DNA from: Rickettsiales bacterium
GTDB lineage: Bacteria; Pseudomonadota; Alphaproteobacteria; Rickettsiales; JABSSG01
Direction: 5' to 3'
Assembly (NCBI GenBank): GCA_040221415.1
Contig: JAVKEN010000022.1
Coordinates: forward strand, 57,439-121,438
Length of the DNA: 64,000 nucleotides
Shown: piece by piece, positions 54,770 through 54,905 of the stretch
Layout of the letters: every line of letters starts with the position of its first letter
How positions within the stretch are numbered: the first letter of the stretch is position 1
Program-made: the position numbers and the translations under genes
The notes under the pieces: generated by a model
Told to the model about the DNA's origin: nothing
Database searches by the model: none
What the model saw: the letters and a program-made list of their open reading frames with translations, nothing else

Positions 54770-54836
54770 AAAAAAAGCGAGCTTACTTTACAGAGAATCT
54801 ATAAAGTAAGCTCAATGAGGAGGCATCTTTGTAACT
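54770..54836 (-). ncRNA. Candidate ~65-nt small RNA with an anti-Shine-Dalgarno seed
   Basis: Promoter TTGACA-N16-(TGa)TAACAT at 54840-54867 on the minus strand. The 5' single-stranded region is ...AAAGAUGCCUCCUCAUU. It is followed by a 12-bp perfect hairpin GAGCTTACTTTA/TAAAGTAAGCTC (54779-54813) and then GC+T7. No ORF. Confidence 0.35.
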
Positions 54837-54905
54837 AAAATGTTATCATAGGTTTTATACTTGTCAACAACCTCAACTAAAAATTTTAAAAAAAGTTTTT
54901 TACCT

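Follow-up and report, generated by a model that had tools for sequence, protein, structure and literature searches.

The candidate unit lies in a 472-nt intergenic region (54490-54961) between two divergent genes of the window, by which we mean the whole 64,000-nt stretch of Rickettsiales DNA analysed here. Its elements and its two neighbours are as follows.

54862-54867, minus strand: -35 hexamer TTGACA, a perfect consensus
54840-54848, minus strand: extended -10 element TGaTAACAT, with the TG at 54848-54847 and the hexamer TAACAT at 54845-54840
54814-54836, minus strand: predicted 5′ single-stranded region AGUUACAAAGAUGCCUCCUCAUU, about 22 nt, mostly unpaired
54823-54817, minus strand: anti-Shine-Dalgarno (anti-SD) core CCUCCUC, inside the 5′ single-stranded region
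54778-54814, minus strand: terminator hairpin with 16-17 contiguous base pairs, including one U·G, and a 3-nt loop, UUC
54770-54776, minus strand: U7 tract of the intrinsic terminator, the U-run being on this strand only
53698-54489, minus strand: flanking gene of 263 aa, starting 280 nt downstream of the unit on the same strand
54962-55552: LOG/TIGR00730-family gene, divergent from 53698-54489

Every promoter element that an earlier note on this DNA had described, in the arrangement TTGACA-N16-TGaTAACAT, is present at 54840-54867 on the minus strand; the 16-nt spacer between the -35 and -10 hexamers contains the TG and ends in TGa. After TAACAT the minus strand reads UUUUAGUUACAAAGAUGCCUCCUCAUU, followed by the hairpin, the dinucleotide GC and the U7 tract. 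The stretch of about 22 nt before the hairpin, described earlier as unstructured, is mostly unpaired in the predicted fold, and the seed GAUGCCUCCUCAUU within it, with a mean unpaired probability of 0.78, is predicted to be accessible. The GC and U7 following the hairpin and the intergenic location between divergent genes were likewise as reported, but the "perfect 12-bp hairpin" placed at 54779-54813 proved to be longer, imperfect by its one U·G pair and closed by a much shorter loop. The hairpin folds with an energy of -22.2 kcal/mol (z = -4.4), and none of 200 shuffled sequences was equally stable. The U·G pair leaves the stem continuous on the minus strand only, the plus-strand fold showing an A·C mismatch, and it favours the minus strand.

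Two further statements of the earlier note need qualification. Its claim that there is no ORF does not hold strictly, since a mini-ORF of four codons, AUG CCU CCU CAU UGA (54826-54812), lies within the predicted RNA; a 43-aa minus-strand ORF upstream of the unit (54886-55017), antisense to the start of the LOG gene and without an SD sequence, is implausible as a gene. The label "orphan" must also be read with care, as the 263-aa gene follows on the same strand. That gene had no homolog among 5.8 billion proteins, and a terminator-like hairpin with a T-run, situated about 140 nt into it (54322-54349, minus strand; stem GAUCGGC/GCCGGUC), hints that the gene model is doubtful or that there is internal attenuation.

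Judging from the position of the -10 element, transcription from this sigma-70-type promoter would start on the minus strand at about 54836-54832, and the hairpin and U7 tract would end it at about 54770, to give an RNA of 63-67 nt. Both the transcription and the RNA ends are what we infer from the DNA, and the unit probably does make a real transcript. The first 22 nt or so, largely unpaired, would present the anti-SD sequence. The in silico evidence supports the layout of an sRNA that is transcribed on its own, ends Rho-independently and exposes a CU-rich seed at its 5′ end, and several generic attributes of a trans-encoded sRNA were found at this level: its own promoter, a Rho-independent terminator, an intergenic position, the lack of a plausible ORF, and an accessible seed complementary to the translation-initiation regions of unlinked genes. 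In Rickettsia, sRNAs are customarily recognised by a promoter and a Rho-independent terminator occurring together between genes, and RNA-seq subsequently confirmed many of those so predicted (PMC4683814). The logic of recognition is the same for the Rp_sR/Rc_sR sRNAs of Rickettsia and for our unit; the former are backed by cross-genome conservation and RNA-seq, whereas the latter is drawn from sequence only and shows no similarity to them (PMC4683814).

The unlinked genes in question belong to a phage-derived gene transfer agent (GTA) of the RcGTA type. The genes and sites needed for what follows are these.

317-1126: GTA baseplate-hub gene, RcGTA g13-like, by its Pfam domains
1129-1140, minus strand: best predicted target site GAGGAGGCAUCU, 12 nt, at -14 to -3 of the hub gene
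3282-3878: g12/DUF2460 gene, RcGTA-type
34267-35664: singlet large-terminase gene
35667-35676, minus strand: second predicted target site AAUGAGGAGG, 10 nt, at -12 to -3 of the terminase gene
63428-63850: tail-tube gene, RcGTA-type

The RcGTA-type genes are spread over at least three loci (317-3878, 34267-35664 and 62910-63850 plus flanks), where they are interleaved with effector-like genes. The set comprises g12, the g13 hub, the singlet terminase, tail tube, tail completion, g15 megatron and DUF2793, with further tail genes just outside the window. Dispersed GTA clusters with singlet terminases have been described in Rickettsiales endosymbionts (PMC9254644). Directly next to the tail-tube gene is a CdiA-CT RNase A-like gene (62910-63431). 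Most of the large ORFs in the window had no Pfam, NCBIfam or PHROG match, among them very large ones (5218-19097 and 55617-58739) of 1406 aa, 3061 aa and, rich in Cys, 1040 aa. Those that did match carry ankyrin repeats, an IQ motif, a DXD glycosyltransferase, a weak LepB_N match and the CdiA-CT RNase, and point to a host-associated bacterium. A CtrA box was found neither near the unit nor near the GTA genes. The spacer before the hub gene (1127-1443) contains a 43-nt direct repeat, with copies at 1153-1195 and 1400-1442 that are 79% identical; it brackets GC-rich palindromic elements, TCCGGGCnnGACCCGGA, an identical copy of which lies at 40212-40228, and these look like a small family of dispersed palindromic repeats. 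The stretch before the hub gene also has a GGGGGTATTAA motif that is shared by a relative, L079.

The earlier note had proposed the terminase gene as the target, on the grounds that the seed is complementary to its ribosome-binding site (RBS). This complementarity is real: it extends over 10 nt, and CCTCCTCATT occurs exactly twice in the window, once in the unit and once, in complementary form, at the terminase RBS (35667-35676). When complements of the 23-nt 5′ region were sought across the window, however, a better, 12-nt site emerged at the hub gene. By duplex energy, the hub is a clear outlier and the first of 48 start regions (-25.9 kcal/mol, where the mean is -9.5 and the sd 4.4), with the terminase in third place. 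The full-length RNA was also cofolded with mRNA segments of 100 nt, so that intramolecular structure was paid for. Here the hub was again first of the 48, with a ΔΔG of -19.4, and the terminase was second with -16.3 (mean -7.3, sd 4.2). The terminase stands as a predicted target, in second place behind the hub. At the terminase start itself, GAGGAGG is only 2 nt from the AUG, and a four-codon upstream ORF, AUG AGG AGG AAA UGA (35661-35675, minus strand), ends in a stop codon that overlaps with this start (AUGA). Such an arrangement points to coupling or reinitiation instead of standard SD spacing.

When the comparison was widened to the 64 start regions of the window and its flanks, GTA genes made up five of the top six. 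The difference between GTA and other start regions with the real seed was significant (p = 0.0016), and remained so (p = 0.0004) once the energy of pairing with the canonical 16S anti-SD sequence, which is assumed and may not be that of the host, had been subtracted. The second rank among the 64 is held by a gene of 340 aa, with the RBS GAGGAGGCA, that does not belong to the GTA. It was considered as a GTA capsid or portal gene and rejected as such: its product, an acidic low-complexity protein, had no PHROG, Pfam or PDB match.

Matches of 11-12 nt are the norm when any start region is compared with 152 kb, both strands being searched in both modes, so only a seed-centred control is meaningful. 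In the control that we used, which was designed post hoc, the CCUCCUC core was kept fixed and its flanks were shuffled. The probability of a match of at least 12 nt was then 0.019, that of such a match plus a second one of at least 10 nt was 0.0003, and that of an energy of -25.9 kcal/mol or lower was 0.003. The difference between GTA and other start regions was -6.7 kcal/mol for the real seed compared to -4.7 (sd 0.95) for the controls, 3% of which equalled it (p ~0.03). The generic CCUCCUC core accounts for most of the preference for GTA genes, and the real flanks add about 2 kcal/mol, a modest and nominally significant contribution. The preference is largely generic because the GTA genes own the strongest GGAGG-type RBSs, which bears out the earlier remark that GAGGAGG-type RBSs are used by the GTA-like genes. 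The same note had warned that complementarity limited to the SD core would weaken the case for the terminase; the match there does reach 3 nt past the core, even if the preference for GTA genes is for the greater part generic.

The exact sequence of the unit was found in only one NCBI Rickettsiales MAG, a singleton, and in the Logan assembly SRR26209243, which is identical over the region compared. The other searches gave no related locus. Homologs of the LOG protein reached 46-52% identity at best and were without synteny; the 18-mer of the seed had 24 matches in metagenome contigs, all in unrelated high-GC coding sequence; and viral contigs searched by way of the terminase contained no relative. 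The hub protein led to two lineages, 45-47% identical to it and with conserved synteny of the GTA tail genes, whose contigs lack the locus of the unit and are too distant for intergenic comparison. The RBS of the hub gene is not conserved in these nearest relatives. That of g12, by contrast with the hub, offers some support: it is AGGAGGCAA both here (3879-3890) and in the two lineages (L079, ~7360-7375; L083, ~1910-1928), and at the sequence level it is conserved beyond the SD core across all three. In one of the two it reads AAUGAGGAGGCAAU, which includes a 12-nt complement of the UGCCUCCUCAUU of the seed. The CA that follows GGAGG would stay unpaired with a canonical 16S tail, which may not be the tail of the host.

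No Rfam family scored at its gathering threshold anywhere in the window, and the sub-threshold matches in the intergenic region were noise only (ncr982, miRNA hairpins, snoRNAs). Trans-acting RNAs with C/U-rich anti-SD motifs that block initiation on several mRNAs are known from Rhizobiales (AbcR1/AbcR2) and from Firmicutes (RsaE/RoxS, RNAIII). In AbcR and in the C-rich-seed sRNAs of Firmicutes the motifs are usually found in loops and the targets are metabolic or virulence genes, whereas the unit has no sequence or structural homology to them and its predicted targets are GTA genes. Cuckoo RNAs (alpha-r14, also ar14, RF02344; CcsR1-4/RSs0680 in Rhodobacter; SmrC14 in Sinorhizobium) are alphaproteobacterial, carry the anti-SD-like motif CCUCCUCCC and are thought to repress translation by RBS occlusion; the same paper treats RNAIII and C-rich loops (PMC4615179). 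They are built of two to four adjacent hairpins of 24-50 nt with the motif in each loop of 9-27 nt (PMC4615179). An alphaproteobacterial host (a Rickettsiales MAG with RcGTA-type genes) and an anti-SD-like motif are common to the cuckoo RNAs and the unit. The unit, however, has a single hairpin, the terminator, with UUC as its loop; its motif is GCCUCCUCA and is located in the 5′ single strand; no DUF1127 gene adjoins it; and the ar14 model had no match in 54400-55050 even at E-values up to 10. On these features of sequence and layout, the unit is not a member of the cuckoo/ar14 family. The weak alignment to Bacillus ncr982 (RF02454) scored 19.2 bits against a gathering score of 50 (E = 4.7) and reflects a resemblance of layout only, in an unrelated phylum: a short 5′ part, UCCUCCU, a terminator hairpin and a U-run. 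It is plausible that the unit is a new anti-SD sRNA of known mechanism, closest in kind to cuckoo/ar14/CcsR, AbcR and the Firmicutes C-rich-seed sRNAs.

In the mechanism that we propose, the RNA would pair in trans with strong GGAGG-type RBSs and occlude the 30S binding window, and the blocked window would lead to less translation. Its best sites in 76 kb would be the RBSs of the dispersed GTA genes, that of the baseplate hub first, followed by that of the singlet terminase. Pairing in vivo and repression are steps that we infer from the complementarities and their ranks. With these steps included, the reading of the unit as an independent gene for a trans-acting anti-SD sRNA is put forward tentatively, as a serious possibility that falls short of a likelihood.

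A different explanation is that the unit has no dedicated function and reflects chance adjacency, the remnant of a degraded gene, or an insulation of the downstream gene from transcription started at the divergent LOG promoter, with the CCUCCUC stretch as the opposite-strand reading of a relic RBS. We consider this rather unlikely. Chance was weighed by a scan for hairpins followed by T6 or longer on both strands of 76 kb (the window plus 12 kb of same-assembly flanks), in which the terminator of the unit ranked first; the other clean hairpin-plus-T7 terminators were at the ends of real genes, so this type of terminator is in use by the organism. The promoter is one of only two matches to TTGACA-N12-15-TGnTAnnnT in the 64-kb window, compared to 0.18 expected. 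Promoter-like matches as a class are no commoner than in shuffled sequence, which suits a chance origin, and sites scoring at least 10/12 occur about 17 times per 120 kb of strand. By our estimate from these densities, a promoter of at least 10/12 would fall 15-60 nt ahead of any of the three strong terminators with a probability of about 0.02, and the arrangement is unlikely as a chance event. A remnant would be in keeping with the promoters and terminators that degraded ORFs retain in Rickettsiales genomes (PMC4683814); no remnant of a gene is visible here, however, because only about 22 nt separate the predicted start from the hairpin. For a relic RBS speaks the plus-strand reading AAUGAGGAGGCA, which resembles a typical GTA RBS of the clade, such as the g12 RBS AATGAGGAGGCAAT of L083. 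No homologous locus was found that would demonstrate conservation of the unit. A repeat or mobile element was considered and rejected, as no second copy of the unit exists in the window, its extensions or related loci.

The unit could instead be the 5′ leader or attenuator of 53698-54489, in which transcripts from the promoter at 54867 would usually stop at U7, and translation of the mini-ORF or some other factor would melt the 5′ arm of the hairpin and allow read-through. This reading is favoured by the same-strand gene that begins 280 nt downstream, though that is a long distance for an attenuator, and by the stop codon of the mini-ORF, which lies at the hairpin foot. Yet this ORF lacks an SD sequence, and its leader would not exceed 10 nt. 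The 5′ 12 nt of the predicted RNA (54836-54825) are perfectly complementary to 54682-54671 and would close a read-through structure of 166 nt (z = -5.4); this sole long-range helix nevertheless joins the 5′ end to a segment other than a terminator arm, no helix competes with the terminator arms, and folding of 54840-54660 leaves the terminator intact. Plausible separate promoters of the gene are TGGTATAAT, near 54582-54574, and TTGAAA-17-AAGAAT, at 54668-54640. The attenuator reading is judged distinctly improbable. As regards the perfect 12-nt inverted repeat itself, AGTTACAAAGAT (54825-54836, minus strand, and 54671-54682, plus strand; p only ~0.03 in shuffles), its arms coincide with the predicted 5′ end of the RNA and with a place just upstream of the promoter-like site of the downstream gene, and it may represent a long-range helix in the RNA or else two operator sites.

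Less probable still is a cis-antisense or sponge role, in which the RNA would be complementary over about 65 nt to a long plus-strand transcript running from about 54700 through the hairpin into the LOG gene. A promoter-like sequence, TCAACA-18-TAGAAT, is found on the plus strand at 54665-54694, and a transcript from it would read through because no T-run follows the hairpin on that strand. Against this, the plus-strand stem has its A·C mismatch, the site scores only 9/12, like dozens of chance matches, and a nearer candidate for the LOG promoter, TTGATT-16-TATAAA at 54906-54933, would give a normal short leader. A type I toxin-antitoxin system or small protein on the opposite strand was rejected, the plus-strand ORFs being of 34-35 aa with TTG starts, no SD sequence and no membrane-like character.

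In addition to the candidate sRNA gene, the window contains one further unit that deserves mention.

58920-59015, plus strand: possibly related second unit, with the same promoter type, a hairpin and CCUCCUCCC

Its promoter (58920-58948, plus strand) is the only other TTGACA/extended -10 match in the window. The hairpin (58955-58997) has 13 bp with a U·G wobble on the plus strand only, and carries UAUUGCCUCCUCA in its loop, which shares UGCCUCCUCA with the candidate unit (p ~0.03 for a shared 10-mer), also contains GCCUCCUCA, and is complementary over 12 nt to the RBS of the 340-aa gene. An unpaired CCUCCUCCC, the exact cuckoo motif, follows at 59007-59015. On the second unit the ar14 model scores 12.7 bits against a gathering score of 58.8. 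There is no terminator. A CtrA-box-like TTAA-N7-TTAA lies at 59026, upstream of an ankyrin/LepB_N-like gene at 59083, and the second unit may be the 5′ leader of this ankyrin gene. From these shared elements, the kinship of the two units is suggestive. That both would form a small family of anti-SD riboregulators silencing GGAGGCA-type RBSs, chiefly those of the GTA (hub, terminase, g12 and tail completion), is an idea for which we hold out only slight expectation.

Endosymbionts of the Rickettsiales and Holosporaceae widely keep GTA gene sets, on which purifying selection acts, and the function and control of these sets are unknown (PMC9254644). A census of sRNAs in Rhodobacter capsulatus raised a possible contribution of sRNAs to the control of GTA-mediated exchange (PMC5546546). 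sRNAs are not mentioned in PMC9254644, and pairing of an sRNA with GTA mRNAs is described in neither of these papers. Should the unit encode merely a generic anti-SD RNA, or be unexpressed, it would amount to one more sRNA prediction. If the proposed mechanism is true, an sRNA that fits the scattered RBSs of the GTA would provide a concrete handle on how dispersed genes are coordinated, and anti-SD riboregulation, known in free-living Alphaproteobacteria, would extend to an obligate-symbiont lineage. If the two units did prove to be a family, they would represent the first RNA-based switch acting after transcription to be described in a GTA, and a means of jointly regulating GTA genes that are dispersed over an endosymbiont chromosome.
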